This document shows, in pieces, positions 3,251-49,053 of a DNA stretch of 64,000 bases. The notes under the pieces are model-generated. The model did no database searches, was not told where the DNA came from, and was given only the letters and a program-made list of their open reading frames with translations. The stretch is from Fibrobacteria bacterium. Its GTDB lineage: Bacteria > Fibrobacterota > Fibrobacteria > UBA11236 > JADFYW01. Both the position numbers and the translations under genes were made by a program. The stretch is taken from the NCBI GenBank assembly GCA_015232855.1, contig JADFYW010000004.1:21488-85487 (forward strand), in the 5' to 3' direction. Each line of letters starts with the position of its first letter. The first letter of the stretch is position 1.

Positions 3251-3318
3251 TAATAAGATGGTACAATTCGATGGGGTAAAAGGGTATAAAAATATGGAGG
3301 GTATCTGTAATAGTACTC

Positions 3319-3493
3319 AGTTATCAGTCATCAGTTATCAGTTAAAAAAAATGCGCTTCGCGATTTTACATCCTTTTACTTCAATTCTTTTCTTTTTATG
3401 TCACTTTAAGAGAAACGCATGTAAATAATTTTAAGTAAGTACCAATTGTACAGTATTATTAAACTGAAAAGTGAAAACTGATAACTGACAAAT
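3319..3493. repeat. Heptanucleotide (CAGTNNT)n MITE-like element
   Basis: CAGTTAT CAGTCAT CAGTTAT CAGTT at 3319-3344 and inverted AACTGATAACTGAC at 3470-3490; a related single arm ACTGACAACTGACGACTGAAAACTCGAAACTG at 7705-7736 shares the flanking TTGTACAGYATTATTAAACTGA. Confidence 0.55.
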
Positions 3494-7552: not shown

Positions 7553-7740
7553 CCATTGTTCTTCTGCAGAAATCAGCTTTCCGTTAATATATGTGCATAG
7601 CGATGGTAATAACTTTATCCTGTTTCATACTTTTTCCGTTATGTTACTCCAGAAGAAGGACGTTCCCTTTTCTGAGGTAAGCGCCATTTGTACAGCATTA
7701 TTAAACTGACAACTGACGACTGAAAACTCGAAACTGTTAG

Positions 7741-25209: not shown

Positions 25210-25352
25210 GGATGTGCGTTCTTATGTTACGTAATTATCCAAAAACCAGTCATTCCGGCTTGTCCGGAATCAAAAGCATAAATTCTGAATCAGGAAGATA
25301 ATATGCAATCTGTTTTTTTTGCAAATGATTTTCTTTTCCAAATATTGGTTAC

Positions 25353-25617
25353 CATTCTAAAGCCTGATTCCAGACAAGCTGGAATGACTATCTCTCCCAT
25401 TCTAAAGCCTGATTCCAGACAAGCCGGAATGACTATCTCTCCCATTCTAAAGCCTGATTCCGGACAAGCCGGAATGACTGTGTCTACCATTCTAAAGCTT
25501 GATTCCAGACAAGCTGGAATGACTATCTCTCCCATTCTAAAGCTTGATTCCAGACAAGCTGGAATGACTATGTCTCCCATTCTAAAGCCTGATTCCGGAC
25601 AAGCCGGAATGACTGTT
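25353..25617. repeat. Tandem array of about 5.9 copies of a 45-bp REP-containing unit (not CRISPR)
   Basis: Unit CATTCTAAAGCCTGATTCCAGACAAGCTGGAATGACTATCTCTCC repeated head-to-tail with a few SNPs; each unit contains the palindrome ATTCCRGACAAGCYGGAAT; no unique spacers. Confidence 0.85.
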
Positions 25618-31361: not shown

Positions 31362-32705
31362 TTATTGTAGCATTCCAAATTTTTTCATTTTACGCCAGAG
31401 CGTACTTTTATTTATCCCCAGGTATTCCGCAGTAAGTTTTTTACTGTTATTAAACTTCCTCAATGCTTTCCGGAGTGCCATTTCTTCTGCCTGGTGCAGG
31501 GGATGTTGAGGCTCTTGTGTGGCAAGGGGCTGGTCCGGTAAATTTTTAGTGAGTTCAGAAGGGAGATGACGGGGCTGAATTACAGAATTCCGGCACAGAA
31601 CGAACGCGTACTCAATGAAATTTTCAAGTTCACGCACGTTTCCGGGATAGTTATATCGCATAAGAAGATCCAGAGCGTCTTCAGAAACGTCCTCGATATC
31701 TTTACCTTTCTGAACATTAAACATTTGAATAAAATGGTCAATAAGGAGCGGAATGTCTTCGCGTCTTTTTGAAAGAGGGGGAAGGTAGAGGCGGATTACA
31801 TTGAGCCGGTAATAGAGGTCGTCTCTAAAGTCACCATTAGCGACCAGTTCTGAAAGCGGTCGGTTGGTTGCTGCAATAATCCGAACATTGGCTTTTACCG
31901 AACATTCTGAACCAAGGGGATCGTATTCTTTTTCTTGTAATACCCGAAGCAGTTTGGTTTGGAGAACCGTGGAAATATCTCCTATTTCATCCAGGAATAA
32001 TGTGCCTCCTTCAGCCAAAGCAAAGCGTCCGGGTTTATTTTTCTTAGCATCAGTAAAAGCGCCCTGTACATAGCCAAAAAGTTCAGACTCCAAAAGTGTA
32101 TCTGGTAAGGCCGTACAATTAAGGGCAATGTATTTACCTTTACGACCACTCAGGTTGTGGATTGCTTTCGCAAAGAGCTCTTTACCAGAGCCACTGGGAC
32201 CTTCAATGAGAACTGTACTGTTACTTTTTGCAAGATCGGGTAATATATCGATAATCTTATGGATCTCATGATTTTTGGAAATGATGTCTTCAAAAGAGTA
32301 TTTGTTTTTAATCTTTTTTCGTAGCAATTCAAGTTCGGAGAGATTACGGAAGGTTTCCACTCCACCTATTATTTTATTGGTTTGATTTCGAAGGGTAGAT
32401 GTGGAAATACTGATAGGGATTTTCTGACCGCTATTGTCCAGAATAGTTACTCTTCGATTAACTATGGACTCACCACTTTGCAGGGTTTGTTGAAGGGAAC
32501 ACCCCTTTTTACAAATATTAGCTCTGAAAACATCAGAACATTTTTTGGTTAACGCTTCTGTTTTAGACACCCCGGTGATTTGCTCCGCAGCTCGGTTAAA
32601 GAAGGTGATGTTGTAGTTGAGATCTATGGTAAAAACACCATCAGCAATAGAATCAAGAATGGTGTCTCTGGCTTCTTCGGGTGTGGGATTCTGAGTATCT
32701 TTCAT
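31362..32705 (-). CDS. Sigma-54-dependent transcriptional activator with Cys-containing PAS sensor (paralog 2)
   Basis: GPSGSGKE, ESELFGYVQGAFTDA, LFLDEIGD, C-terminal Fis HTH (KKLTAEYLGINKSTLWRKMKKFG); PAS with KKCSDVFRANICKKGC. Confidence 0.9.
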   Translation of the reverse strand: MKDTQNPTPEEARDTILDSIADGVFTIDLNYNITFFNRAAEQITGVSKTEALTKKCSDVFRANICKKGCSLQQTLQSGESIVNRRVTILDNSGQKIPISISTSTLRNQTNKIIGGVETFRNLSELELLRKKIKNKYSFEDIISKNHEIHKIIDILPDLAKSNSTVLIEGPSGSGKELFAKAIHNLSGRKGKYIALNCTALPDTLLESELFGYVQGAFTDAKKNKPGRFALAEGGTLFLDEIGDISTVLQTKLLRVLQEKEYDPLGSECSVKANVRIIAATNRPLSELVANGDFRDDLYYRLNVIRLYLPPLSKRREDIPLLIDHFIQMFNVQKGKDIEDVSEDALDLLMRYNYPGNVRELENFIEYAFVLCRNSVIQPRHLPSELTKNLPDQPLATQEPQHPLHQAEEMALRKALRKFNNSKKLTAEYLGINKSTLWRKMKKFGMLQ

Positions 32706-33338: not shown

Positions 33339-34160
33339 TTATAACAACTTTTCGATTGCTATTCCTCTTTTTATAGCTGCCTTCATGCCTTTAATTATTT
33401 CATCCTGATATGCCGTTTTGTTGAAATAACTAAGTATACCGTCCTCTGATTTACCAAAACATATAGCCTGAAGCTTGGCTTCTTTGGATAGCGGGTTAGT
33501 ATTAATATTGTGTGATTTTAATGCATGGAGAATGTTTTTGTGGTCGTGAAAGCCGCTCTGGGGTTTAAGTTTAATACTAATAGGGGAATGGGGAATGGTT
33601 ATTACTTCACCATTAAGCATGTTGAAAGCAAGGTCACCCACTTTTTTCATTCTTTTAAAATCAACGGTATCTGCAAGTGTTCCGTTCCTATCACGGTCTA
33701 TGATACGTTGCCTGGTAAGTAACGGATCGATACTTAAATAAATAATAGCATCAAAAAATCGCAGATTTTGTGTTCTTATAAGCCGGATATTCTCGTATAC
33801 ATATCCCGGCCTGAAAATAAAACGTTCTCTCAGTTCTTTCCAGTAAAGAGTTCTCCATTTGAGACCTGTATTTTTTGCTAGACTTCGTCCCAGAGTACTT
33901 TTACCACTTCCGGGTAAACCGTCAATGGCGATAAGTTTTGGGGTGATATTATGGCTTTTCAGAATGTTTATAATTTGCCGGGCATGTTCCTCAGTTTCTG
34001 GTACTGTTCGATATTGTTTTTCTGTACTGCCTGTAGTCAACTTCCGAAATTGACTCCGTATAAGTGATTGAACAGTACGCTTTTTAAGCAAAGCTGCAGC
34101 AGTAACCCCTGCAAAAGTGAGGGTAGCTTCCGGCATAAAATTTTTGACTTTATATCCCAT
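33339..34160 (-). CDS. P-loop NTPase / putative small-molecule kinase of unknown specificity
   Basis: Walker A GLPGSGKST at residue ~82; no other family signature recognised; 8-bp gap to the PAP2 gene. Confidence 0.35.
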   Translation of the reverse strand: MGYKVKNFMPEATLTFAGVTAAALLKKRTVQSLIRSQFRKLTTGSTEKQYRTVPETEEHARQIINILKSHNITPKLIAIDGLPGSGKSTLGRSLAKNTGLKWRTLYWKELRERFIFRPGYVYENIRLIRTQNLRFFDAIIYLSIDPLLTRQRIIDRDRNGTLADTVDFKRMKKVGDLAFNMLNGEVITIPHSPISIKLKPQSGFHDHKNILHALKSHNINTNPLSKEAKLQAICFGKSEDGILSYFNKTAYQDEIIKGMKAAIKRGIAIEKLL

Positions 34161-34186
34161 TGAGTACCTTCTAAGCGAAAAAAACG

Positions 34187-34300
34187 AGTAATCAGTAATC
34201 AGTTGTCAGTCGTCAGTTTTTAATGAGAACTCCGCATTAATTATGATTTTCGAAGAACTTAATAATTCTGCTGAGGAACCTAATTCTGGTAACTGGGAAC
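34187..34300. repeat. Heptanucleotide (CAGTNNT)n MITE-like element
   Basis: CAGTAAT CAGTAAT CAGTTGT CAGTCGT CAGTT at 34193-34218 and inverted AACTGGGAACTGATAACT at 34281-34300. Confidence 0.5.
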
Positions 34301-34658
34301 TGATAACTATTCTCTTCTATTAATAAAATACGTAACCATATTTAAAACGCAAAATCTATGCCAATTAGGGTGATGGCCGAAAAGTTGGAACGGTAAAAGT
34401 TGGAACGCTTTTTGCAACATATATAGTAGAGCCTGAAACAGATTAAAAATGTTGCAAATATGCAATTGTATGTTGCAAAAGAGAGGTGGAAATAGGATAT
34501 GATGCACGTTAAGAAATTTTTTTATTTATCTGCAATTTTTGTTATAGTGGGCGTAGTCTTTCTTCAAGTCTTCTTTATTTTGCCTGGGGTTAGTTGGAAC
34601 GTCCGCACCACAGGTGTAGTGGCAATTTCAATTTTAATGTATTTGTCCTGCGCTCTGT

Positions 34659-36008
34659 TTGTCACATTATGGTATAAATACGTGGAATAAATTGTCTATT
34701 AAAGACATTATCCTCGATTCCATTGCTGAGGGGGTATTTACCGTTGATCGTGATTTTACCATTAATTATTTCAATCGACGGGCCGAGTTTATTACCGGCA
34801 TATCCAGAGAAAAGGCCATTGGTTGTAAATGTTATGATGTATTCCGTGTAAATATTTGTAATACTAATTGTGCCCTAAAAAATGCTATTAAAGATGATGC
34901 AAAATATGCTGTTAACAATGTGGATATCATAAACAGCAAGGGCAAGAAAGTACCTATCAGCATAAATGCTTCTGTACTTAAAGATGATAATGGAAACATT
35001 TTAGGTGGTGTAGAGACTTTTCTTGACCAAAGTGAAGTGAGTACCCTGAGAAAAACAATTAAGGCTGGATATAGTAGCGAAGATATCATTTCACAGAACA
35101 AGCAAATCCATGATATGCTTGATATTCTTCCTGATATCGCTGAAAGCACGAGCACTGTTTTAATAGAAGGTGATAGTGGAACGGGTAAAGAGCTGATAGC
35201 CAGAGCTATACATAATTTAAGTGGGAGAAAAGGTCGCTTTGTAGCTGTTAATTGTGCTTCCCTCCCTGAGTCACTTATAGAATCAGAACTTTTTGGGTAT
35301 GAAAAAGGTGCTTTTACTGATGCCAAGAAAAATAAACCTGGCAGGTTTGCATTGGCAAAAGGAGGAACACTTTTTCTTGATGAAATAGGAGAACTGCCTG
35401 GTACCGTTCAATCGAAATTATTGCGGGTGTTACAAGAAAAAGTATATGAACCGTTGGGAGGTGAAATACCAATACCAACTGATGCCCGCATCGTGTCTGC
35501 TACCAATAGAAATTTAAAACAGCGGGTAGAAGAAAAGGCTTTTAGACAGGACTTGTTTTATCGGCTTAATGTCATAAAGCTGTTATTACCGCCATTAAAT
35601 CAGAGAAAAGAAGATATACCTCTGTTAATAGAACATTTCATTAACAAAATGAATGCGATTACTGGCAAAAATATACAAAGTGTCTCAGAAGATGCTCTTG
35701 AACTATTGACTAACTATGATTACCCGGGTAATATTAGAGAATTGGAAAATGTGATTGAATATGCTTTTGTAATGTGTAAAGAGCGGGTCATAGAACCAAA
35801 ATACCTTTCAAAAGACATCATCACAAACCAAAAGACAGTAAACCACAATACTTTCTCAGAACAATACCCACGTTTTGGATTAATTGAAAAAGACCAGATT
35901 GTTGATGCACTCCACAGGTCATACGGAAAAAAATCAAAAGCCGCAGAACTGCTGGGCGTTAATCGGAGTACCTTGTGGAGACAGATGAAAAAACATCATA
36001 TGGTGTGA
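34659..36008 (+). CDS. Sigma-54-dependent transcriptional activator with Cys-containing PAS sensor (paralog 3)
   Basis: GDSGTGKE, ESELFGYEKGAFTDA, LFLDEIGE, Fis HTH (SKAAELLGVNRSTLWRQMKKH); PAS with GCKCYDVFRVNICNTNC. Confidence 0.9.
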   Translation: MSHYGINTWNKLSIKDIILDSIAEGVFTVDRDFTINYFNRRAEFITGISREKAIGCKCYDVFRVNICNTNCALKNAIKDDAKYAVNNVDIINSKGKKVPISINASVLKDDNGNILGGVETFLDQSEVSTLRKTIKAGYSSEDIISQNKQIHDMLDILPDIAESTSTVLIEGDSGTGKELIARAIHNLSGRKGRFVAVNCASLPESLIESELFGYEKGAFTDAKKNKPGRFALAKGGTLFLDEIGELPGTVQSKLLRVLQEKVYEPLGGEIPIPTDARIVSATNRNLKQRVEEKAFRQDLFYRLNVIKLLLPPLNQRKEDIPLLIEHFINKMNAITGKNIQSVSEDALELLTNYDYPGNIRELENVIEYAFVMCKERVIEPKYLSKDIITNQKTVNHNTFSEQYPRFGLIEKDQIVDALHRSYGKKSKAAELLGVNRSTLWRQMKKHHMV

Positions 36009-37179: not shown

Positions 37180-40100
37180 TTATGCTCTATCCTGTTTCAC
37201 CGATATCCCGTGTTTCTTTAAAATATGGTAAAAAGATGTCCGGTTCACTTTAGCGTGCTCTGCGCATAATGGGATATTATTGTTATAGCGTTTCAGGAGC
37301 TTAATCAGGTAATCTTTTTTCAATGATTCCAGGTAGCGATTTAAGCTGAGTTCTTCCGCTGAGGCTGGTTCTGCACAGGAGGTGTGGCATATAACTTTAA
37401 CAGGGAGGTCCACGGTAGTTGGCTCATTTTCGGTACAAAGAGAAAATACCTGATAAAGGGTTTGTTTTAATTCTTTTACATTTCCCGGCCATGAGTAATT
37501 TATCAGAGTCTTATATAAGTCATTATTTCCTTTTTTGATTTTTTTGTTATAGACCGTGTTATACTCAAGCCGGAAAAAATCAGTAAGATCAGGAATGTCT
37601 TCTTTTCGATCACAGAGACGGGGAAGGGTTAATCGTCTGGTGGCAATGCTGCAAAACAACTCTTCACTAAAATAATTATCCAATACCATATCCTCCAGAT
37701 TTCTAATGGATGAGGATATAATGCGTACATCAATATTTTGTTCTACGATAGAGCCGGTACGCTGTATTTTTTTCTTTTGCATACAATTAAGCACTCTTGC
37801 CTGGAGTTCATAATTAAGGTGATCTATTCCCTTGATATAGATGCTACCGGTATGGGCCAGCTCAAACAATCCTTTTTTTATATCATAGCTCCCATCAGGG
37901 AGTTTTCGTTCATAACCGAATAGTTCGTTTTCGAGAAGATTATCGGGAAGTGAAATACAGTTAATTGTCAAATATGGTGCATTACGACGTTTGCCCATAA
38001 AATGGAGCGTGTGGGCAAAAAGTTCTTTGCCTGTTCCCGCATCTCCATGAATATGAATATTATCGTCCTTTCTGGAGAATGTTTCCATTTGTTCTCTCAG
38101 TTCAATCATCAACTGACTCTTGCCCACGATGGTTACATGATTACCCGGCTCATGTACAGCACTACTTACCAATTGTTCACCAAAACATTCCTGCAATATG
38201 CTGCGCAATAAAGAAGTATCCAAAGGCTTTTTTAAGAAATATTGAAATCCGGCTTCTTTTGCGTTTTCTAATATACCATCCTCAAGTAACAGCCCTGTTA
38301 ATAATACTGCCTTTGATGGAGATTGAATTTTATTTAGGGCCAGCATTAATTCATTTCCATTCATCTGTTCCATATTATAATCGATAATAACCAGACGATA
38401 GGGATGTTCCGGCAGATTATCAAGCATATGCTCACCGCCAAAAAAGATGTCAGCTTTAAGTCCGATATCTTCTAAATATTCACCGATAAGTTTGGCCAGG
38501 GTACGATCGTCATCAACTACCGCAATAGAGGCGGGAATGGGTTCTTCTTCATTGACCGGTTTTGCCTGGATGGATGGTTTACTGGTACCGGTATCACTTT
38601 CTACAACCAATGCCATCTGGTTACCGATTTCCGTTAAGAGCTTTTCTGATTTTACAGGCTTGGTTAAGAAGGGGACTCCAAATTTCATTACTTCAAGTGC
38701 ATCTTGAGAAGGAGCATAGCCACTAATGAGTATTGTTTTAACATCATCGTTGATTTCCCGGAACTGAAAGAAACAATCCCGGCCGCCCATCTCCGGCATT
38801 ATCATATCAAGAACGACCACGCCTATCTGTTGGTAGTTATCTTTATAATAAGACATAGCGTCCTGGGAATTACTAAAGAGCTTATATTTATATCCGCTAT
38901 CCTCCATGGTACTATTGTACATTTTGAGCAATAATTCATCGTCATCAATTATGATAACCTCTTTATCTGCCTGAACGCCTGGTTTGATAGTAATGGTTTG
39001 ATGCTTATCTTGCTTTACTACCTCACATTCATGATAAGGCAAAAATATGTGGACCGAAGTACCATGGTTCACTTCACTTTCTATTTCAATTTTCCCTTTG
39101 TGGCTTTTGATACAACCATAAGAACTGGCCAGACCAAAACCGGTACCCTGTTCATTTTTTGTAGAGAAGAAGGGTTCAAAAATACGCTTCTTATCCTCTT
39201 CCTTAATTCCGTTGCCGGTATCTTTAACGGTTAGTTTGATATACTTACCCGCACCGAGATTGTCATCGGTGAGCCAGGTAAGGGATGTTTCTATACTCAA
39301 AGTGCCACCCTGGCTCATCGCGTGCCGTGAATTAGCCACCAGGTTGAGAATGACATTCTGTATCTGGGCCTGGTCGCATTTTAAAGTGGCTTTTTCTTTG
39401 GTGAAATGTTTAACTACAGTGATATTTTTTTCAAGGGTATGAGTAAGTAGGGCGAGGGTTTCTTCCAGAAGTTCATGGATATCTGTTTCTACAAATTTAT
39501 ACACACTCTTCCTGGCAAATGCCATTAATTTTTTAACCAGGTCGCCACCGCGTTCACAAGCCATGGTTACTATTTCCATACTTTCTTTTACTTTTTCCAG
39601 GTTGTAAGGATCACGCTCTACCTTTTCTGCAGACCCGAGTATAGCACCCAGCACATTATTGAAGTCATGGGCAATACCGCCCGCCAGGGTGCCTATTGAT
39701 TTCATCTTTTCCAGTTCAAATGCTCGCTTTTCAAAGGCTTTACGTTCAGTGATGTCAGTGAAATTTTCAATAATGCCTATAAGGTTATTTTGATGGTCTT
39801 TAAATGGAATACCCTTTAAAATGCATGTTAATTTACGGCCGTTACGAAGGCTCAGGTCGACTTCCTGATTTATCTTTTCATTACCGTTTAAAATCTGGGT
39901 GAGTGGACATTCTGATTTATTACAGAACGGTCCTTGCCAGATATCGTAACAGTTCGATCCTAAAACGTCTTCCTGTTTAAGGTCAAACAGAGAACAAAAG
40001 GTGTGATTTACCCGGAGTATCTTGAATGATTTACTGATAACACAAGAAGGTACTGCAAGATTAAACAGTTGGTGTAATTCAGATTGTGTTTGTTTAAGTG

Positions 40101-40482
40101 AGCTACTTAGTTGTTTCTGGTGGGTGATATCTATCCCGGTCAACAAGTATGTATCTGATATTTCACCGGTACCAGTACCATGGGTAAGTTTCCATTTACG
40201 CCAGTTGACGTTATGTTCCTTATCAGAAAGGGACGACTCAAATTCGGAACTGAAACCGTGTTGCTTCAAAGACGATATTCGTTTGGTAAAACTGCTCTGA
40301 TTTTCTTCAGGAAAAAGTTTGAAGACATTTTGCCTTTTACTGATTGGGGATGTGATTTCGAAGTAGTCTAAAAAGGCCTGGTTACTAAATTGGATTTGTC
40401 CGTCGTTGAAAAAACGGCAGATAGCTGTATCTACGACATCTAAAATTTCTTTATCATTTCTCATACTATGATTAAGAAGCAA
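37180..40482 (-). CDS. Hybrid sensor: PAS - PAS(Cys) - HisKA - HATPase - REC - REC - degenerate sigma-54-type AAA+ - Fis HTH
   Basis: H-box LAGGIAHDFNNVLGAILG; HATPase (DTGNGI, GTGFGL); two receivers (IIIDDDELL, AVVDDDRTL); AAA+ Walker A GDAGTGKE, with ELFGYERKLPDGSY where GAFTGA would be; C-terminal HTH AEHAKVNRTSFYHILKKHG; PAS with SNCYDIWQGPFCNKSEC. Confidence 0.8.
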   Translation of the reverse strand: MLLNHSMRNDKEILDVVDTAICRFFNDGQIQFSNQAFLDYFEITSPISKRQNVFKLFPEENQSSFTKRISSLKQHGFSSEFESSLSDKEHNVNWRKWKLTHGTGTGEISDTYLLTGIDITHQKQLSSSLKQTQSELHQLFNLAVPSCVISKSFKILRVNHTFCSLFDLKQEDVLGSNCYDIWQGPFCNKSECPLTQILNGNEKINQEVDLSLRNGRKLTCILKGIPFKDHQNNLIGIIENFTDITERKAFEKRAFELEKMKSIGTLAGGIAHDFNNVLGAILGSAEKVERDPYNLEKVKESMEIVTMACERGGDLVKKLMAFARKSVYKFVETDIHELLEETLALLTHTLEKNITVVKHFTKEKATLKCDQAQIQNVILNLVANSRHAMSQGGTLSIETSLTWLTDDNLGAGKYIKLTVKDTGNGIKEEDKKRIFEPFFSTKNEQGTGFGLASSYGCIKSHKGKIEIESEVNHGTSVHIFLPYHECEVVKQDKHQTITIKPGVQADKEVIIIDDDELLLKMYNSTMEDSGYKYKLFSNSQDAMSYYKDNYQQIGVVVLDMIMPEMGGRDCFFQFREINDDVKTILISGYAPSQDALEVMKFGVPFLTKPVKSEKLLTEIGNQMALVVESDTGTSKPSIQAKPVNEEEPIPASIAVVDDDRTLAKLIGEYLEDIGLKADIFFGGEHMLDNLPEHPYRLVIIDYNMEQMNGNELMLALNKIQSPSKAVLLTGLLLEDGILENAKEAGFQYFLKKPLDTSLLRSILQECFGEQLVSSAVHEPGNHVTIVGKSQLMIELREQMETFSRKDDNIHIHGDAGTGKELFAHTLHFMGKRRNAPYLTINCISLPDNLLENELFGYERKLPDGSYDIKKGLFELAHTGSIYIKGIDHLNYELQARVLNCMQKKKIQRTGSIVEQNIDVRIISSSIRNLEDMVLDNYFSEELFCSIATRRLTLPRLCDRKEDIPDLTDFFRLEYNTVYNKKIKKGNNDLYKTLINYSWPGNVKELKQTLYQVFSLCTENEPTTVDLPVKVICHTSCAEPASAEELSLNRYLESLKKDYLIKLLKRYNNNIPLCAEHAKVNRTSFYHILKKHGISVKQDRA

Positions 40483-40990: not shown

Positions 40991-41902
40991 TTAAACCGTA
41001 CTATCAAGAAACAGCTCAACCTCTTCAATGTGCTCGCCTTTAAACAATGCGGTTGAGCGAATTTTTTCCATGTAATAGTCGAGCTGTTTCAGATTCCAGG
41101 TGTCTGGTGCATTAATCACAATTCCGGCCCAGTATTTCTGGCCTTTACGCTGGAGTTTTATAGAAGAGATCATGGCTTCCGGCATTTCGTCTTCAATAAG
41201 AACCTGTAGTTTATGTGCAAAATCAGGTTCCGGTTCTTTATCCAGAATGATATTAACGGGTTCTTTCCATTGGTGATAGGCGTCCCTGATAATAATAATC
41301 CCTACAATGGCTGCTGCCAGAGGGTCGAGGATCTGCCAGGCACCACCGAATTGTGATAATAGAATCCCAATAGAAACGCCACAAGAAGAGAGCATATCGG
41401 CCTTATTCTGGTATGCATTCGCTTTCATACCACCACTTTTAAGTTCTCTCCCTGCGCACAGACTGTATTTAAACATAATGTAATTCAGAAGAATAGAGAG
41501 GATCGCAACCGGGAAGGTGATAAAAGAAGGCGGATAAAACCCGCCCCTGAGTAATTGGGTGATATTGGTAACAAAAATAAAGATACCCAGCGCAAAAAGG
41601 ATGCTGTAAACGAGCAGAGAGGTAATAAATTCGGCTTTTCGATAGCCGAAAGGATGAGAAAAATCAGGGTCTTTTTTAGAAGCATGTATACTGTACAGTA
41701 TAATAAGGCCACCGACCACGCAGGAAAATGATTGCAGGCCATCTGCCATGAGACCATTACTATTAAACCACATACCCATGAGGAATTTCAAAACAGCGAG
41801 AAATAGATTTGCTGCTATACTCCAAATCATGATGCGGTTGCCGCAGCTTGGGCAACGGTGGGTACTTGCACAAACACCCGGGTTAAATAGTGTTTTAAAC
41901 AT
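40991..41902 (-). CDS. Cation diffusion facilitator (CDF) transporter, MamB-like (N-terminal CxxC motif)
   Basis: Six TM helices, HPFGYRKAEF TM2 signature, C-terminal cytoplasmic domain; N-terminal CASTHRCPSCGN as seen in MamB; last gene of a seven-gene operon. Confidence 0.6.
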   Translation of the reverse strand: MFKTLFNPGVCASTHRCPSCGNRIMIWSIAANLFLAVLKFLMGMWFNSNGLMADGLQSFSCVVGGLIILYSIHASKKDPDFSHPFGYRKAEFITSLLVYSILFALGIFIFVTNITQLLRGGFYPPSFITFPVAILSILLNYIMFKYSLCAGRELKSGGMKANAYQNKADMLSSCGVSIGILLSQFGGAWQILDPLAAAIVGIIIIRDAYHQWKEPVNIILDKEPEPDFAHKLQVLIEDEMPEAMISSIKLQRKGQKYWAGIVINAPDTWNLKQLDYYMEKIRSTALFKGEHIEEVELFLDSTV

Positions 41903-42773
41903 GACGCCCCTTAACGTTTACATAGCAGTTTGATTGGCCAGCAATGGCTCCCTGAATATTTGCAATAATTGAACGTATAATTGTTTTTGATTGCTTGACT
42001 GAGGTGGTTTCAGAGAGAGAAATAGAACTGTAAATTTCCATACTATTTTTTTGCTTAACAATTTTTAAAGCAATAAGGCGTATATCTTTGTGTGCCCTAA
42101 GAATATGAGGTTTAAGTAGAGAGCGGGAGACCGTAGGCAGGCTGGTGTCCATTAAACTCTGATATGCTTTACTCAAGCTGTAAATACTGTAGATGAGAAC
42201 ACCTAACGCCATAGCCGCGGCAGCCAGGTAATCGGTAATAAATGGACCGCTTCTGGAAATGATAATGATAAAGATGGAAGCCGCAGTGCATAAGAAATCA
42301 AAGCCGGTGATAAAGATAAGCTTTTTGTAATGTTTACTCGTATGCAGGCTCGTATGGGACTGTAAATAGTTTAGGAGAATAAAATTAATGGCCATAAAAA
42401 TAACTGCTATCCAGGCAGAAGCCATGGCAGGAGGGTATATCATATGAAAAAACATGACATGGGCAAAGGCATACAACAATGCACAGGTGGCGAGAACAAT
42501 AATAAGAGAAAGTCCCGCCAGTAGGAAAAAGGAAAGTTTATCATAGGAAAATATGGCCTTTTTATGGCTTTTCTTTTTGTGTTTTGCCTGGAACTCAATA
42601 ATGCAAAGCAGTGCGGTAAATGCACCAAATAAAGAGGGCAGTCCGGCCACCAGTAACGATTTTGCATTATAGATAGCGCCAAAAGCTACCTTAGAAATAA
42701 ACAGGCATACATAAATAATAAGCGCCTGGTAGAGAATGGCAGCAGCAGTGTTTTGGTTTGACCTTTTTGCCAT
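41895..42773 (-). CDS. Divergent CDF-family transporter paralog (MamM-like?), metal-site residues degenerate
   Basis: CDF-like TM topology plus C-terminal cytoplasmic domain, but the TM2 motif is FSYDKLSF instead of PFGY-type; 8-bp overlap with the downstream CDF gene. Confidence 0.45.
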   Translation of the reverse strand: MAKRSNQNTAAAILYQALIIYVCLFISKVAFGAIYNAKSLLVAGLPSLFGAFTALLCIIEFQAKHKKKSHKKAIFSYDKLSFFLLAGLSLIIVLATCALLYAFAHVMFFHMIYPPAMASAWIAVIFMAINFILLNYLQSHTSLHTSKHYKKLIFITGFDFLCTAASIFIIIISRSGPFITDYLAAAAMALGVLIYSIYSLSKAYQSLMDTSLPTVSRSLLKPHILRAHKDIRLIALKIVKQKNSMEIYSSISLSETTSVKQSKTIIRSIIANIQGAIAGQSNCYVNVKGRHV

Positions 42774-42774
42774 T

Positions 42775-43506
42775 TTACATACTCACGCCTGCTGGCGTTC
42801 CCATAATTGCATGACAATTAGAACAGACTCCCCGGTATTCATGTATCATTTGGGCGGTAAAAGAAATGGCAATATCAGGATGAATCTGGTGGCAACTGGC
42901 GCATACCCCCCGGTATTCGTGGGGGAGTATGGCATCCCTGAAGATAGGCGGGGCCAGGTTATTTAAATTATACGATTGTACACCGGGATGTGTGGATGCA
43001 TTCCAATGCCGGTTATTTTCGTTTGGGATAGTTGAGGGTGGGGTATAGGCTACTGCAGCACCTTGAGGAGTGGCCCCCGGGAAACAATTAGCCACACTGG
43101 GACAAGTTGCGCAACCGGGAGGAATGGTAGCCGCAACGGTTTGCCCTTGAGGAGTGGCCCCTGGGAAGCAATTAGCCACACTGGGACAAGTAACACATCC
43201 GGGAGGAATGGTAGCCGCAACGGCTTGACCTTGAGGAGTAGCTCCCGGGAAGCAATTAGCCACACTGGGACAAGTAACGCAACCGGGAGGAATAGTAGCA
43301 GCGACGGTTCTTCCCTGAAGGGGAGCTGTAATACCCGTGTTTGCTTCTACCCGTTCTTCGATAGTAAGGAATATGGCAAAAACAATAACCAGAAGTGCAA
43401 TCCCCCCGCCTATAAGTATTGGTTTTTGGTTTGTTTTGGAAATCTTAGGAAATAATTTTTGAGGAGCCTCACCTTCAAGCATATCGTCGAGTTCATTGTC
43501 TGTCAT
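42775..43506 (-). CDS. Membrane-anchored protein with three 28-aa Cys-rich tandem repeats and two magnetochrome-type c-heme motifs (MamT/MamP-like)
   Basis: N-terminal TM; 3x TVAATIPPGCVTCPSVANCFPGATPQGQ; C-terminal LPHEYRGVCASCH and MIHEYRGVCSNCH both fit the magnetochrome HxxRGxCxxCH consensus. Confidence 0.6.
   Translation of the reverse strand: MTDNELDDMLEGEAPQKLFPKISKTNQKPILIGGGIALLVIVFAIFLTIEERVEANTGITAPLQGRTVAATIPPGCVTCPSVANCFPGATPQGQAVAATIPPGCVTCPSVANCFPGATPQGQTVAATIPPGCATCPSVANCFPGATPQGAAVAYTPPSTIPNENNRHWNASTHPGVQSYNLNNLAPPIFRDAILPHEYRGVCASCHQIHPDIAISFTAQMIHEYRGVCSNCHAIMGTPAGVSM
43085..43340. repeat. Three near-identical 84-bp in-frame tandem repeats inside the magnetochrome gene
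   Basis: DNA-level repeat GCAACCGGGAGGAATGGTAGCCGCAACGG... encoding the 28-aa Cys-rich unit three times; produces spurious antisense ORFs. Confidence 0.85.
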
Positions 43507-43525
43507 TATTTCTCCTTAACGGTTT

Positions 43526-43972
43526 TTAGAATGCGCCCGGCCTCACACCGGGGACCAGGGCAGCGATAACCTGTTGTCCCTGTCTGTTTATGGTTAATCT
43601 GATTGTTTTGTTATTTGCGGTATTACTGAGATTCTTGCCGAACTGCTTTTGGCTGGTAATGCTTTTACCGTTCCATTTGCTGATGATATCCCCGTTTTTG
43701 ATGTTTGCCGCAGCAGCGGGAGATCCGATAAAGACCCTGGTCACCAGTAATCCCCGGGAAGCTGTGATGTTATATTGTTTTTTAATGGTGCGGTTAAGTT
43801 CAACAGTTTCTATTCCCAGCCATTTTCCCTGCATGCCGGGTTCGCTGTTTGTACGGTGCATCCTGGAAGCCATAAGCAAAAAGGTAAGGGATAGTAAACC
43901 TGCAATAAAGAAAAACATATTACGCTTCATCGTATCATACCGTTCTAATTGTGCTTTACGTGTTTTGTTCAT
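43526..43972 (-). CDS. Single-TM PDZ-domain protein (MamP/MamE N-terminus-like)
   Basis: N-terminal TM (FFFIAGLLSLTFLLMA), then a PDZ core GLLVTRVFIGSPAAAANIKNGDIISKWNG...IRLTINRQGQ. Confidence 0.6.
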   Translation of the reverse strand: MNKTRKAQLERYDTMKRNMFFFIAGLLSLTFLLMASRMHRTNSEPGMQGKWLGIETVELNRTIKKQYNITASRGLLVTRVFIGSPAAAANIKNGDIISKWNGKSITSQKQFGKNLSNTANNKTIRLTINRQGQQVIAALVPGVRPGAF

Positions 43973-44859
43973 GTTTCGTCAGTTTCTGGTTGTGGCAGAA
44001 CTCTGGTCTGATTTTTTTCAGGACCCACCCGCATGGACACGTTTTCACATTTCAAACATTTTAAGCAGCGTACACAGGCAGAATGATTGGGATCGTGGCT
44101 TACATTAAGCTCAACCAAACAGTCACCGACACATTTATTGCAATCTTTACAATGGCCGGTGTCTACTTGCAGCCGTACAAGACTGAAGCGATTGAAAAAC
44201 CCCATTATGGCGCCAAGAGGGCAAATAACCCTGCAGAATGGTCTTTTGGCAATAACAAATAGGCAGAGGAAGCTAAGAAGGATTACCAGTTTAATAAGAA
44301 ACATGGTCCCAATAGCGCTGGCAGAAACTGCAGGGATATTATCAACAGGCATCATAGGATTCCAGATAATCCAGGGGAGACCTGCCTGAAGAGTACCCAT
44401 AGGACAGAGTTTTGAAAACCAGGTTTCCTGCGTAAAAAAGGGTATAAGGAAAATCAGGAATAGCAAGACAAAGTATCGGAAAGACGTCAACTGATTGGGT
44501 ATGGTGATTTTAAAACTTTTGATTTTGTACATCAGGTCTTGTAAAAGACCAAAAGGACATAACCAGCCACAAGCCATGGCCCCCACTGTCATAGATATGG
44601 CAAGTAGATATCCGATAACTGTAAAAGGAATTTTATGGATGGTAACAAAATGCTGGATGGCCCCGATAGGACAGGTGAAAAATGAAGTAGGGCAGCTGTG
44701 GCAATTCAAAAAAGGTACGCAAACACTTTTAAGGGAACCCTGATAAATCTTTTTGGTTTTGAGGAAGCCCATATAGGCATTTGGAATAATAAACGAAAGC
44801 CATTGGGAAATAACGCGTGCCCGTTCTATCATGTTCAACTGTTTCAGGTCTTTCTCCAT
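43969..44859 (-). CDS. NapH/MauN-like membrane polyferredoxin (4 TM + 2x[4Fe-4S])
   Basis: Conserved CHSCPTSFFTCPIG and CGWLCPFGLLQD (NapH-type motifs), C-terminal CKDCNKCVGDC and CVRCLKCLKC clusters. Confidence 0.6.
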   Translation of the reverse strand: MEKDLKQLNMIERARVISQWLSFIIPNAYMGFLKTKKIYQGSLKSVCVPFLNCHSCPTSFFTCPIGAIQHFVTIHKIPFTVIGYLLAISMTVGAMACGWLCPFGLLQDLMYKIKSFKITIPNQLTSFRYFVLLFLIFLIPFFTQETWFSKLCPMGTLQAGLPWIIWNPMMPVDNIPAVSASAIGTMFLIKLVILLSFLCLFVIAKRPFCRVICPLGAIMGFFNRFSLVRLQVDTGHCKDCNKCVGDCLVELNVSHDPNHSACVRCLKCLKCENVSMRVGPEKNQTRVLPQPETDET

Positions 44860-45000
44860 GAGATTATTCCAGACCTATACAGGCAAGACACATTGATGCA
44901 CCGTCATCCTGGATTTCCAGAACATCGTTGTTTAAATCACCCAACAGAAGAAATAGGAAGGCAAAGAGGTAGAGGATGGTGATAAATTTCCAGTTTGAAT

Positions 45001-45333
45001 TCATAGACTTTCTATCCATTTCATAAAGTTTTTACAACGTGGGCAGCTTGGGAAGCCCGTCTGACCACAGGATTCACAAATAAATGCCCCCTGATATCCG
45101 TTCCAGTACATGCTCACATTACATTGAGTACAGCGGGGAAGAGCTTTGGTGCCACATTGGGGACAGACGCATTTGACCTTGTGGTTGATTATTTTCATCT
45201 CAATATGACCTTGTACCAACGACCGGGAAGCAAGGGAATCATATTTTGCCAGGGAGTAGGTTATATACACCGCAATAAAGGCAGTATAGATTACACCGGC
45301 AAGAATCAGAATAAACAGAGAACGGTTATTCAT
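45001..45333 (-). CDS. Small membrane protein with four CxxC pairs (zinc-ribbon-like)
   Basis: N-terminal TM; CVCPQCG, CTQC, CESCGQ, CPRC. Confidence 0.45.
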   Translation of the reverse strand: MNNRSLFILILAGVIYTAFIAVYITYSLAKYDSLASRSLVQGHIEMKIINHKVKCVCPQCGTKALPRCTQCNVSMYWNGYQGAFICESCGQTGFPSCPRCKNFMKWIESL

Positions 45334-45334
45334 C

Positions 45335-46048
45335 TTAGAATACTTTCATGCCAGAAGTAATGGTTTGTACGTTCACCGGCACTGCAACCGATACTACCTG
45401 ATGCAGGCTGTTACTGCAGTGGGGACAGGTCATACCTGAGCCCGGAGGGATTTTTGAACTGGCAATTTTGTATCCGCAGTTGTAGCAGATTGAAAATGTC
45501 CCCTGTACGATTTCCGCCACATTGGCCTGGGCGTCAAAAGATGAACAGGATATGAGTTTTTTGCTGCCGGTGATGCCGTAATGCTGGGGTACGGTCATTT
45601 TATCAACCTTTACCATGGCTTCGGGGAACGACTGTATGGTTTGCAGCACCGTTCCTTTGATATCGGTATACATCTCAACATTGGAGGACTTGAAAATACG
45701 TGCCGGTTCAAAACCAAAATTATTTCCGCAGACCGCGTCTATATTTTTTTTAACCAGCATTTCACTAACCCGTAAACCCACCGCATGGGGCTGGTCCATG
45801 AATTTATTGGCAATGATTTTATAGGTGAGATTTGAACGGTCACAAACAAGGAAATAGGGTGCTCTTCCGAAAAGATAAGCTACCGGACTATTGATATCTG
45901 CTCCGGTGGAGGCTACCGCTACAAACCGGGCGTTATTTCCAGATAAAACGACCGGATGCCTTTTTTCATAGATAAAGCGAAACAGCAAAGCCGTTACCGC
46001 TAAAAGCAGTGTAATAACAAATATATTTTGTCCCGGTAGTTTCATCAT
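45335..46048 (-). CDS. Membrane-anchored NifX/NifB-like FeMo-cofactor-family domain protein with C-terminal zinc ribbon
   Basis: N-terminal TM; VAVASTGADINSPVAYLFGRAPYFLVCD...IDAVCGNNFG (PF02579-like); C-terminal CYNCGYKI...CPHCSN; first gene of the operon. Confidence 0.5.
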   Translation of the reverse strand: MMKLPGQNIFVITLLLAVTALLFRFIYEKRHPVVLSGNNARFVAVASTGADINSPVAYLFGRAPYFLVCDRSNLTYKIIANKFMDQPHAVGLRVSEMLVKKNIDAVCGNNFGFEPARIFKSSNVEMYTDIKGTVLQTIQSFPEAMVKVDKMTVPQHYGITGSKKLISCSSFDAQANVAEIVQGTFSICYNCGYKIASSKIPPGSGMTCPHCSNSLHQVVSVAVPVNVQTITSGMKVF

Positions 46049-46608
46049 GCCATGCTAAAGCAAAGAACGTACCAGATTTTAAATAGCTGTGATTATTATA
46101 GTAATAAGGGAAATAATTAATAAGATTGCAATAATGCAATTTAAGTGCGCGGAAAAAGATTGCTAAAATGCAATTTATTTGTTTTAAGTTTGCGATTGTC
46201 TTGTGAAAAGCACATTCAAACGGTTTCTTGTCTGGTAATTGAGAAAGTTGAAAGCCCTCTGTTTGGTTAATGAGAATAATGTGTTGTGATTGCGACTATA
46301 TTGTATGGGAAGTATCGTAGTTACATGGATAGTAATAGAAAACAATTGTGTGACAAGGTTATGTACCAAAATAGCCTTGGTTTTATCTCTCTAAGAAAAA
46401 GAAAATGTTAAAAAATGTCATTTTTATATTTTTAACTGGAACCCCCAATTCCCCAATCCAGCCCCCAATTTACTGGTGGATATCGCCAGGATATTACCCT
46501 CAATTGCCTGTGAAGATGCAGGTTAGAATTGTCAATTAGTGTCGTAAAACAAAAAAAAATATAGATTTTGCTTGTATTCATTACGATTAGTTGGGATAAT
46601 ACATTTGA

Positions 46609-46682
46609 TGACTACTGACTACTGACTACTGACTACTGACTACTGACTACTGACTACTGACTACTGACTACTGATTACTGAA
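46609..46682. repeat. Heptanucleotide tandem repeat (ACTGACT)x~10.5, same CAGTNNT family in reverse orientation
   Basis: gactactgactactgac... continuous for 74 bp, ending 11 bp before the ATG of the histidine kinase gene at 46693. Confidence 0.9.
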
Positions 46683-46692
46683 AGTTGGAATT

Positions 46693-49053
46693 ATGCCCTC
46701 TGATCTGGAAAACATACTGGCAAGAGATGATGTGCCAGATAATGTAAAATGCGCAATTAAAGCAGAGTGTGAAAAAAGAGCGTTAACTGAAGCACAGCTT
46801 CAGGAAAAAACGCAGCTTTGTAATCAGATTATTACAACGCTACCATTTCCTTTTTATATCATTGATGTAGATACCTATGAAATTTTAGATACCAATGCAA
46901 TTACATCAGATGTCTTGGATATCAATACTGCCAAGCACTGTTATGAAGTTTCTCATAACCACAGCGAGCCCTGTTTGGGTGACAATCATCCCTGTCCAAT
47001 TGCCGAAGCAAAAAAGACTAAACAACAGGTAAGGGTCGAACATATTCATATCGATCAATATGGCAAAGAACACATTGTAGATGTTCATTGTTGTCCGATC
47101 ATAGATACCCGGGGTGATGTGTCCAGGGTTATAGAATATGCTATTGATCAAACAGAAAAAATATTAACACATAAACAGCTTAAGGAAATAGAATCAAAGT
47201 ACCTTGACTTATTTCTTTCCAGCACCGACGGTATTGTTATCGCGGATATTGAAACAAAAAAGATTGTGGATGTAAACCCTGCTATATGTGAGATGCTTGG
47301 TTATATCAGAAAAGAATTATTGGAACTGAGTATTAAGGATATTCATCCAAAAGATAAATGGGAGTATATAAAAAGTGAGTTTATGGCACAGGCAAAAGGA
47401 GCCAAGCGCCTTTCCTCAGAGATGCCGTGCCTTAAAAAGAACGGTGAAGTTTTTTATGCGGATGTGAATGCCCATAAACAAATCATCAATGGGAGAGGTT
47501 GTAACATTGGTATTTTTAGAGATGTTACCGAAAAAAGAAAAGCAAGAGCAAAAATCAATTTCCAGGCATCTCTTTTAGATCAGGTGCATAACGCAGTTAT
47601 TACTGTTGATTTGAATAATGTTATCCTTTCCTGGAACCATCATGCTGAAAGTTTATACTTATGGAAGAGTAGCGAAGCAGTAGGGCAAAATATTATTGAG
47701 TTACTTTGTCCTGAAGAAATGAAGGGTGTGGTCAAGGAAAATTTTGACCAGTTGAATAGAGATGGCCATTGGGAAGGCGCCTTTGATGTAAAAAGAAAAG
47801 ATGGTACTACTATTCCTGCCTATATTATTCAAACTTATCTGAAAGACCAGGATGGTGAAATTATTGGGATTATTGGTGTGAGTTATGATATCTCTGAAAG
47901 AAAGAAAAACGAACAGAAATTGATTAAAGCCAAAGAAAAGGCACAAGCGGCTGATAGACTTAAAACCGCTTTTCTGGCATCCATTTCCCATGAAATCAGG
48001 ACACCCTTAAACCATATATCAATGGGTACAGAGCTGATAAAGGATAGCATCGAGGAAAATCTAGATGAAGACCAGCAGGAAATTTTTGATGATATGAAGA
48101 CTTCAGAAGTAATGCTTTTGCGATTACTGGATGATATTGTAGACACTTCTATGATAAGTAGCGGATTACTTACCATAAAGCCTCGCGAATGTTCGCTTCA
48201 TGCTATACTGGAGCCTCTCTTTAATAATTTTTCCAATGTGATCAAGGCAGAAAAACCGGAACTTAGGCTTAACTATGTTAAAACAGATGATGTTTACCTG
48301 TATACTGATCCGGGTAGATTTGAACAAGTGATTTCTAATCTTCTTAATAACGCCTTTAAATTTTCTACTACGGGTGAAATCCGCTTTGGATATCAGCGGA
48401 TAAGTGGAAACCGGGTAGAAATGTATGTCGAAGATGAAGGTATTGGCATTGCCAAAGAACGTCAGCAGGAGATATTTAATAAGTTTACTCAGATTGATAA
48501 TGACCTGGAGCGCAAGTATGGTGGCATAGGGTTGGGGCTCACCATAGCCCAATCACTGGTAGAGATGCTTGGAGGGCAATTACAGGTAGAATCAGAATTA
48601 GGTAAAGGAACCCGGTTTTATTTTTCTTTAGCAGTAGCAGAAGAGTATTCCCCACAAAAACAAACATCGGAGGAAACGAATACTGTTGGGGCATCAAGTA
48701 AGTGTATTCTTATAGCTGAAGATGATATGATCAGTGAAAAAATGTTGGAAACTTATTTGGACTCCAAAGGCTTTCATGTATTGCATGCTGAAAACGGCGA
48801 AAAAGCGGTTGTGTTGGTTAAGGAACATAAAGTTGGTATGGTTTTTATGGATATTAACATGCCGGTGATGAATGGGGTGGAGGCTACGAGACTCATTAAA
48901 CAATTTGACAGTACTATTCCGATTGTGGCCATGACCAGCCTGGCTATGAAAGGTGATAAAGAAACCTTTATGGCGGCCGGGTGTGATGATTATATCGCTA
49001 AGCCAACCAAACTGGAAATAGTGATGGAGAAGGTTGGGAAGTATATGGGATAG
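46693..49053 (+). CDS. Hybrid sensor histidine kinase (PAS x3 - HisKA - HATPase - REC) with Cys-triad sensor
   Basis: H-box LASISHEIRTPLN, HATPase (DEGIGI, GGIGLGL), C-terminal receiver (ILIAEDDMIS...MDINMPVMNG); N-terminal HCYEVSHNHSEPCLGDNHPC. Confidence 0.85.
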   Translation: MPSDLENILARDDVPDNVKCAIKAECEKRALTEAQLQEKTQLCNQIITTLPFPFYIIDVDTYEILDTNAITSDVLDINTAKHCYEVSHNHSEPCLGDNHPCPIAEAKKTKQQVRVEHIHIDQYGKEHIVDVHCCPIIDTRGDVSRVIEYAIDQTEKILTHKQLKEIESKYLDLFLSSTDGIVIADIETKKIVDVNPAICEMLGYIRKELLELSIKDIHPKDKWEYIKSEFMAQAKGAKRLSSEMPCLKKNGEVFYADVNAHKQIINGRGCNIGIFRDVTEKRKARAKINFQASLLDQVHNAVITVDLNNVILSWNHHAESLYLWKSSEAVGQNIIELLCPEEMKGVVKENFDQLNRDGHWEGAFDVKRKDGTTIPAYIIQTYLKDQDGEIIGIIGVSYDISERKKNEQKLIKAKEKAQAADRLKTAFLASISHEIRTPLNHISMGTELIKDSIEENLDEDQQEIFDDMKTSEVMLLRLLDDIVDTSMISSGLLTIKPRECSLHAILEPLFNNFSNVIKAEKPELRLNYVKTDDVYLYTDPGRFEQVISNLLNNAFKFSTTGEIRFGYQRISGNRVEMYVEDEGIGIAKERQQEIFNKFTQIDNDLERKYGGIGLGLTIAQSLVEMLGGQLQVESELGKGTRFYFSLAVAEEYSPQKQTSEETNTVGASSKCILIAEDDMISEKMLETYLDSKGFHVLHAENGEKAVVLVKEHKVGMVFMDINMPVMNGVEATRLIKQFDSTIPIVAMTSLAMKGDKETFMAAGCDDYIAKPTKLEIVMEKVGKYMG

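Follow-up and report, generated by a model that had tools for sequence, protein, structure and literature searches.

What does an almost pure array of heptanucleotide repeats do directly upstream of the start codon of a sensor kinase gene? Such an array lies in a 64-kb stretch of Fibrobacterota DNA (hereafter the window, meaning the whole of the DNA that was analyzed). A preliminary description had proposed that it acts as a phase-variation switch for the kinase. Here, we ask to which repeats the array is related, how its relatives are positioned and how they change, and which explanation of its location best fits these observations. Judged by its sequence, the kinase tract is a solo member of the NNACTGA ('TAACTGA-type') family of heptamer repeats. 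It is more likely to be a length-variable leader than an on/off switch.

The repeat tract and the kinase gene

The tract is 73 nt long and sits in the sense orientation relative to the kinase gene (Table 1). Tandem Repeats Finder delimits it at 46609-46681, with a period of 7, 10.4 copies, 98% matches and a score of 139. It had been described as a perfect array of 10.5 units; the tract itself is real, but it contains one C>T substitution, at 46675, and comprises 10.4 copies that end at 46681. Both the distance of 11 bp to the ATG, at 46693, and the identification of the downstream open reading frame (ORF) as a hybrid kinase were correct, the latter on the basis of PAS, PAS, HisKA, HATPase_c and Response_reg domains. 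The encoded protein is identical to MBF0430018.1 ('MAG: Fibrobacteria bacterium'). A scan of GTDB genomes returned no relative with more than 36% identity, and a search of 5.8 billion proteins recovered only the protein from its own MAG, the next match aligning over 37% of the query at 41% identity. None of the collections searched contained another copy of the kinase locus.

Table 1. Coordinates of the kinase locus and of the other heptamer arrays in the window.
Feature	Position	Strand	Evidence
Solo heptamer array: TGA + 9 x CTACTGA (46612-46674) + TTACTGA (46675-46681)	46609..46681	+	Sequence reading, Tandem Repeats Finder
11-nt gap AAGTTGGAATT between array and ATG	46682..46692	+	Sequence reading
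786-aa hybrid histidine kinase, PAS-PAS-HisKA-HATPase_c-Response_reg (REC)	46693..49053	+	All domains above Pfam cut-offs
TAACTGA TAACTGA TGACTGA TAACTGA, sense, 66 nt upstream of ATG 3250	3317..3344	-	Sequence reading
Inverted partner of 3317-3349: AAACTGA AAAGTGA AAACTGA TAACTGA	about 3456..3488	+	Conserved lead-in 3442-3467 precedes
Second copy of lead-in CCAWTTGTACAGYATTATTAAACTGA, then AAACTGA CAACTGA CGACTGA AAACTCG AAACTG	7684..7736	+	2 matches vs 0 expected
AAACTGA CGACTGA CAACTGA TTACTGA (TTACTCG), sense	about 34185..34219	-	Sequence reading
Short inverted partner of ~34192-34219 array: TAACTGG GAACTGA TAACT	about 34286..34308	+	Complementarity

The tract lies outside the ORF and has stops in all frames in both orientations; thus, it is unable to shift a reading frame. 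The gap between the array and the ATG offers a weak GGA as its only Shine-Dalgarno-like element, with no matches to AGGAG, GGAGG, GGAG, GAGG, AGGA or AAGG. Such a motif was detected for 23 of the 51 genes in the window. When positions 46600-46740 were folded as RNA, the array was unpaired in both the MFE and centroid structures (z = -0.11 relative to shuffled sequences), and an Rfam search of the whole window produced no match at gathering thresholds. No inverted partner of the array was found in the 560 nt upstream (46049-46608), where the best alignment reached 11/21, below the shuffle mean.

We also looked for promoters. A sigma-70 scan yielded no site near the kinase array, and reading of the sequence upstream of the array revealed no match to a sigma-54 -24/-12 element. 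TAcaTTTG at 46600-46607 resembled the Bacteroidetes -7 box TANNTTTG but was dropped as a candidate, since the window has no excess of this box (62 matches vs 73 expected). Given the lack of a sigma-70 site by the array and of enrichment of TANNTTTG, transcription of the tract is an assumption of what follows.

Genomic setting of the kinase locus

The array is separated by 560 bp from the divergently oriented gene with which the kinase shares an intergenic region of 644 bp. Directly upstream of the kinase, and divergent from it, is a magnetosome-like gene set (40991-46048, - strand). Its products include two cation-efflux (cation-diffusion facilitator, MamB/MamM-like) proteins, together with magnetochrome-domain, PDZ, 4Fe-4S and Nitro_FeMo-Co-domain proteins. 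This gene set fits the magnetotactic Fibrobacterota MAGs reported by Lin et al. 2020 (PMC7602337). Within it, an 84-bp unit is repeated three times at 43060-43309 with 89% identity, forming an in-frame 28-codon repeat inside the magnetochrome-protein ORF (42775-43506).

The window also encodes sigma-54 activators, class III (c3) cytochromes and a T9SS sorting tail. Together with the label 'Fibrobacteria bacterium' on the kinase record, these features led us to reject an origin of the window in cyanobacteria or Beggiatoaceae. PAS-containing sigma-54 activators are unusually dense (21154-22485, 31362-32705, 34659-36008 and 37180-40482); in one of them, of 1100 aa, a histidine kinase and receiver domains are fused to a sigma-54 activator. 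A further intergenic repeat, at 25352-25614, precedes a heterodisulfide-reductase-like gene and consists of 5.8 copies of a 45-bp unit, CCATTCTAAAGCCTGATTCCAGACAAGCCGGAATGACTATCTCTC, at 93% identity. Each of these units has a short inverted repeat (ATTCC...GGAAT), and they could be binding sites for a regulator.

Related arrays within the window

Five other sites in the window had been listed as sharing the periodic motif, and each does contain a period-7 array with an ACTG core (about 3317-3344, 3461-3488, 7703-7736, 34187-34219 and 34286-34308). All six arrays fall inside the non-coding 16% of the window. Three consecutive CAGTNNT units with at most one mismatch gave 17 matches in the window, compared with 0.01 expected from shuffles. 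Arrays of at least three units with an ACTG core and a period of 7 occurred four times in the 64 kb, vs none in 280 kb drawn from 36 unrelated bacterial loci. Canonical TAACTGA units are present at 3317-3344 and at about 3475-3488. The kinase array shares the ACTGA core and the period of 7 with TAACTGA; its main unit, CTACTGA, differs from TAACTGA at two positions.

Intergenic arrays in the 'forward' orientation, that is, sense to the following gene, are the kinase array (11 nt from the start), that at ~34192-34219 (31 nt) and that at 3317-3344 (66 nt). The last of these precedes a gene for a REC-Hpt-REC-GGDEF protein (776-3250, - strand). The array at ~34185-34219 is upstream of ATG 34160 (ORF 33339-34160), at a distance that shrinks to 24 nt if its degenerate unit is counted.

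The copies other than the kinase array had also been said to form inverted pairs. This holds for two sets, 3317-3349/3456-3488 and 34194-34210/34292-34308, the latter being the complementary stretches of the second pair; it does not hold for the array at 7703-7736, for which no inverted partner was found. The first pair has arms of 33 nt that are 82% complementary and 106 nt apart, and folds as - strand RNA into a long hairpin (-44 kcal/mol, z = -1.9). Terminal inverted repeats of the kind seen in miniature transposable elements (MITEs) are present at 3317-3488 and 34187-34308; the kinase array has no such inverted partner within 560 nt.

The only dispersed near-identical copies in the window are those of a 26-nt lead-in, which occurs at two sites (3442-3467 and 7684-7709) with looser similarity extending ~80 nt further upstream. 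The second copy and its array lie between convergent ORFs, with no start codon behind. The recurrence of lead-in and array together suggests a duplicated or mobile unit. The flanks were read for target-site duplications by eye only, and none was noticed.

Two other observations concern the surroundings of these arrays. First, the ORF at 3646-4188 (-) encodes a Pycsar effector transmembrane domain (PycTM, E = 2.6e-21), pointing to a possible cyclic-pyrimidine anti-phage system beside the first array pair. Second, heptamers of another kind are present: CCCCAAT-like units at 46436-46470, ~140 nt upstream of the kinase array, and 2.3 units of GGGGAAT at 33583-33598. These resemble the G-rich GGGGAYT repeats of Nostoc (PMC4692102).

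Position and pairing of CTACTGA arrays in other genomes

Arrays of CTACTGA are not confined to this locus. A scan of metagenome contigs for at least four tandem units returned at least 120 contigs with G+C contents of 0.38-0.73. Two of them could be placed, one in the Gemmataceae (Planctomycetota) and one as Pyrinomonadaceae-like (Acidobacteriota). We counted positions for the 73 listed arrays that had at least 480 nt on both sides, using ORFs of at least 100 aa. Among these matches listed, 20 of the 73 have an ORF start within 15 nt in the sense direction and none in the antisense direction (p = 2e-6); within 50 nt, the counts are 29 sense vs 4 antisense. Restricting the counts to solo arrays, again among the matches listed, leaves 5 sense vs 0 antisense within 15 nt; within 50 nt, the ratio is 11 to 2 (p = 0.02), and 31 of the 42 solo arrays have no start at this distance. 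The sense bias of solo arrays is thus modest and weaker than that of the full set. Note that the corresponding count for paired arrays (15:0) is not an independent test of orientation, because the pair arrangement reads identically on both strands.

The starts themselves are in many cases fixed by conserved N-termini, namely those of MutM (MPELPEVE), AccC (MFQRILVANRGEIA), MutL, MiaA, S16, CysS and MnmG. At these conserved starts, the gap between array and ATG is 0-5 nt, which leaves no room for a Shine-Dalgarno sequence. The genes that CTACTGA arrays directly precede include the housekeeping genes accC, mutM, mutL, miaA, rpsP and cysS.

Pairing follows a strict arrangement. An inverted partner was found within 250 nt upstream of 34-39 of 84 arrays (~40%) and downstream of none, among the matches listed. 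The sole arrangement is [TCAGTAG]n-spacer-[CTACTGA]n, and its mirror image is absent from the matches listed. Since [TCAGTAG]n-spacer-[CTACTGA]n reads alike on both strands, the real asymmetry is that one arrangement exists and its mirror never does. In the typical paired layout, the stop of a co-directional ORF is followed after 0-28 nt by the inverted array, a spacer of 6-170 nt, the sense array, and, 2-15 nt further on, the next start. Both pairs in the window (3317-3349/3456-3488 and 34187-34218/about 34290-34308) share the arrangement seen in metagenomes. Furthermore, stretches consisting of partner plus spacer recur at 82-93% identity beside different genes on the metagenome contigs.

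Viral contigs behave differently. TAACTGA x3 was present in 107 IMG/VR contigs and CTACTGA x3 in 26. With duplicates removed, viral TAACTGA arrays were positioned 11 times in sense vs 16 times in antisense within 30 nt, and a universal rule of sense orientation was rejected for this reason. The Beggiatoa pattern is reversed for many of the viral TAACTGA arrays, which are antisense and are followed closely by an AGGAG Shine-Dalgarno sequence and a start codon. TAACTGA arrays of Microcystis likewise have no sense bias (MacGregor 2015, PMC4679880). Together, the viral and Microcystis arrays indicate that any role is lineage-dependent.

Changes in unit number at related loci

The tract had been proposed as a substrate for slipped-strand mispairing. 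This is plausible, as loci of the family with the same flanks differ in unit number (5 vs 16; 4-10; 24/25), and slippage is thus supported for the family, from related loci rather than from the kinase locus. Five of the 22 viral-contig TAACTGA loci that were present in at least two samples with the same 40-nt flanks vary in length (3/4, 4-10, 4/5, 5/6 and 24/25 units). In the acidobacterial meaB-mce spacer, one contig has 16 units (15 perfect and one variant), and relatives with 93-96% identical Mce have ~5 degenerate units. Two other close relatives carry GACTCCA/GACTCTA or AGACCCA/AGACCAA heptamers at the same site. A matching inverted arm is present in each case, which means that both arms change together at this locus. 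A segment duplicated within one contig has 5 units in one copy and 4 in the other. The Acidobacteriota comparison (5 vs 16 units) and the purity of its nine identical units suggest that the kinase array has recently expanded.

The accB-accC spacer of Gemmataceae (AccC 96-100% identical) changes in another way. All alleles have 5.7 sense units that run into the ATG in the same phase; in the 5' arm, the number of units is 4 or 5.3. Between alleles, the spacer that separates the arms is inverted (reverse-complement local score of 12 vs 3, with a shuffle maximum of 7). Two of these alleles sit in a single MAG assembly, GCA_035312985.1.

A putative unstructured leader and its alternatives

We prefer to read the tract as an unstructured 5' leader that has expanded recently, influences translation initiation and tunes it by its length; we judge this reading about evenly poised between right and wrong, and its mechanism is inferred. 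The transcribed tract would make up most of the 5' leader on the kinase mRNA. Within this leader, the repeats would form ~70 nt of unstructured RNA that stops 11 nt short of the AUG, lacks a Shine-Dalgarno sequence and contains stop codons in every frame. This stretch could influence translation initiation by offering the 30S subunit and protein S1 a single-stranded landing or standby platform, or alternatively by being bound by a protein specific for single-stranded RNA. Replication slippage would add or remove 7-nt units, changing both the leader length and the number of sites, and output would be graded by array length rather than switched on or off. The array itself probably shares its mode of origin with the paired arrays of the window, having been seeded by a common process. 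A Nostoc preprint on other heptamers is inconclusive.

A broader version of this reading is tentative, and we would be somewhat surprised if it held. In it, NNACTGA-type heptamer arrays would be more than microsatellites, namely strand-specific intergenic elements that span phyla, being present in Fibrobacterota, Planctomycetota (Gemmataceae), Acidobacteriota (Pyrinomonadaceae-like) and viral contigs, as well as in Beggiatoaceae, cyanobacteria and Bacteroidetes. In the paired form, with an inverted array behind a stop codon and a sense array directly against the following start, the two arrays would form a hairpin that juxtaposes the stop and start codons and thereby serves translational coupling or processing. 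The loop of this hairpin could flip, and its arms could be swapped for another heptamer as long as complementarity is kept. In the solo form, as at the kinase, the expanded sense array would be a landing pad for ribosomes that is independent of a Shine-Dalgarno sequence, and its length would tune expression.

The most serious rival is that the tract is a functionless microsatellite, expanded by slippage and persisting where it is harmless, with its place before the kinase start being incidental. Among the long simple repeats of prokaryotes, heptamers form the most abundant class, which has been put down to polymerase slippage (Mrazek 2007, as cited in PMC4679880 and PMC4692102). Stops in all frames and both orientations confine the arrays to non-coding DNA, and the purity of the array fits recent expansion. 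The exact sequence is not conserved, given that the heptamer differs among close relatives at one orthologous site, and the viral TAACTGA set lacks an orientation bias. Several regularities stand against pure neutrality: the 20:0 excess of sense over antisense arrays within 15 nt of starts (among the matches listed), the constant phase of the array to the ATG in the accC alleles, the use of one of two possible pair arrangements (34-39 vs 0, among the matches listed), and the joint change of both arms at orthologous sites. These four observations imply constraint on at least the paired arrays. Nevertheless, because most solo arrays are away from starts, viral arrays show no sense bias, and transcription is assumed, neutrality has to be taken seriously, even though we think it rather unlikely.

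The proposal with which the locus was first described, a phase-variation switch, fares worse, and we now consider it improbable. In this scheme, gain or loss of a 7-bp unit would alter promoter or untranslated-region spacing and thereby switch the kinase ON or OFF in part of the cell population. Nine identical tandem units and unit-number polymorphism at same-flank loci of the family are what such a switch would be built from, and repeats in the 5' untranslated regions of Moraxella UspA1 and UspA2 do modulate expression, as reviewed in PMC4679880. However, the repeats of a contingency locus lie in an ORF or between the -35 and -10 elements, and the kinase tract does neither. The spacer between -35 and -10 hexamers is 16-18 bp, for which 73 bp is too long, and neither flank of the tract yielded a promoter element. 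CTACTGA elsewhere precedes housekeeping genes rather than contingency genes, the accB-accC array keeps its 5.7 units and the same ATG phase in three alleles, and a hybrid kinase would be an atypical contingency gene. A classic ON/OFF switch is not supported on account of the location of the tract outside the ORF, its length relative to a promoter spacer, and the housekeeping genes behind the same unit.

Alternatively, the array may act as DNA, as an iteron- or operator-like series of sites at which a regulator, or the partner of the nearby kinase, would bind the double-stranded heptamers and so govern how the kinase gene or the divergent magnetosome-like operon is transcribed. We hold this to be quite improbable. 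Three 7-bp units make 21 bp, or two helical turns, such that every third unit would be expected to lie on the same face; the site is in a divergent intergenic region; and heptameric direct repeats are bound by SARP regulators in Streptomyces, according to work cited in the Nostoc preprint. Strand-specific placement against start codons, often at 0-5 nt, fits a role at the RNA level better, the divergent gene is 560 bp away, and no candidate binding protein was identified.

Lastly, it is highly improbable that the array is the remnant 3' arm of a mobile or hairpin element of the form [TCAGTAG]n-spacer-[CTACTGA]n that lost its 5' arm and expanded later: two such pairs exist within the window, ~40% of metagenome arrays are paired in one arrangement throughout (among the matches listed), and partner-plus-spacer sequences recur next to different genes, but the 560 nt upstream show no vestige of a partner, no transposase was found, and no target-site duplication was noticed on reading the flanks. 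This explanation concerns origin only and is compatible with the leader reading. Nucleation of the arrays by a mobile element, as suggested in the preliminary description, is thus weakly supported, with partner-plus-spacer recurrence in its favor, and the lack of a target-site duplication or transposase and the unpaired state of the kinase array against it.

If the translational role is true, these arrays would represent a widespread signal for initiation or coupling that is independent of a Shine-Dalgarno sequence and has length variability built in. If it is not true, the tract is a harmless microsatellite that matters only as a hazard for assembly and annotation. In this genome, the tract flags a sensor kinase beside a magnetosome-like cluster as a candidate for variable expression. 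The regularities that can be tested are sense arrays at starts that lack a Shine-Dalgarno sequence, the single pair arrangement, loop inversion, and the co-replacement of arms.

Comparison with known repeat systems

Among repeats known to affect expression, the poly-G tract of UspA1 and the AGAT repeats of UspA2 in Moraxella catarrhalis, as reviewed in PMC4679880, share with the kinase array its presumed position as a tandem repeat between promoter and start codon; according to that review, their copy number varies by strain and tunes expression. They differ in having units of 1 or 4 nt, in belonging to surface virulence genes of a host-adapted pathogen, and in that their effect on expression is experimental.

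The paired arrays resemble MITE or REP-like elements, with terminal inverted repeats around a short spacer, an intergenic location, and similar copies beside different genes. Unlike those of MITEs, their arms consist of tandem heptamers, the number of which varies; for the kinase array, an inverted partner is lacking.

Heptamers are also known from cyanobacteria, where Mazel et al. 1990 reportedly described the STRR heptamers CCCCAGT, TTGGTCA and CAACAGT. We take these to be tandem and intergenic, and two of the three presumably contain the CAGT/ACTG core of the window arrays. They differ from the kinase array in unit sequence and host group. At the orthologous acidobacterial locus, a pair of the TTGGTCT/AGACCAA type stands in place of the CTACTGA pair and can be compared with the STRR unit TTGGTCA. 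The existence of three Calothrix heptamers is noted in PMC4692102.

A second group of heptamers, GGGAATC/GGGGAYT, forms intergenic arrays of 2-26 units in Xanthomonas and Nostoc, with extensive length variation among close relatives (Rehm et al. 2015, PMC4692102). The GGGAATC arrays of Xanthomonas include 70-75 inverted pairs per genome in one fixed arrangement, so paired heptamer arrays as such are already known (PMC4692102). The Xanthomonas and Nostoc units are G-rich and G-quadruplex-capable, whereas CTACTGA has no G-tract. Unlike the kinase array, these repeats are nearer to the upstream ORF than to the downstream start (PMC4692102).

The closest relatives are the TAACTGA repeats. A literature search for the literal string CTACTGACTACTGA found no papers. 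[quoted passage not shown] Most of these sets are 'forward' and end a few nucleotides before a start codon that lacks a ribosome-binding site; the repeat RNA was predicted to be unstructured, and a translational role was proposed. Repeats of this kind are further known from other Beggiatoaceae, Thiocystis, 15 cyanobacteria and 5 Bacteroidetes, reaching 43 units in some species, and Cyanothece strains differ by 7-nt indels within them (PMC4679880). The kinase array has in common with them tandem 7-nt units, an ACTGA core, an intergenic site and a sense position before a start. The predicted lack of RNA structure is a further likeness. The gap before the ATG has no motif beyond a weak GGA, which may still allow a weak Shine-Dalgarno interaction. 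The last unit of the array, TTACTGA, is a variant in MacGregor's list, and long TAACTGA arrays are known from bacteria of the FCB group (PMC4679880). There are also differences. CTACTGA is absent from MacGregor's table of single-base variants, Fibrobacterota are not among the host phyla reported for TAACTGA repeats, and inverted pairs, which are frequent in the window and in the metagenome set, are represented by one only in the Maribeggiatoa genome (PMC4679880). The tract itself is ordinary for the NNACTGA family, whose family-level regularities are testable and only partly described in the literature. As judged from its repeat unit and host, the locus extends the TAACTGA-type family by one phylum and one unit.
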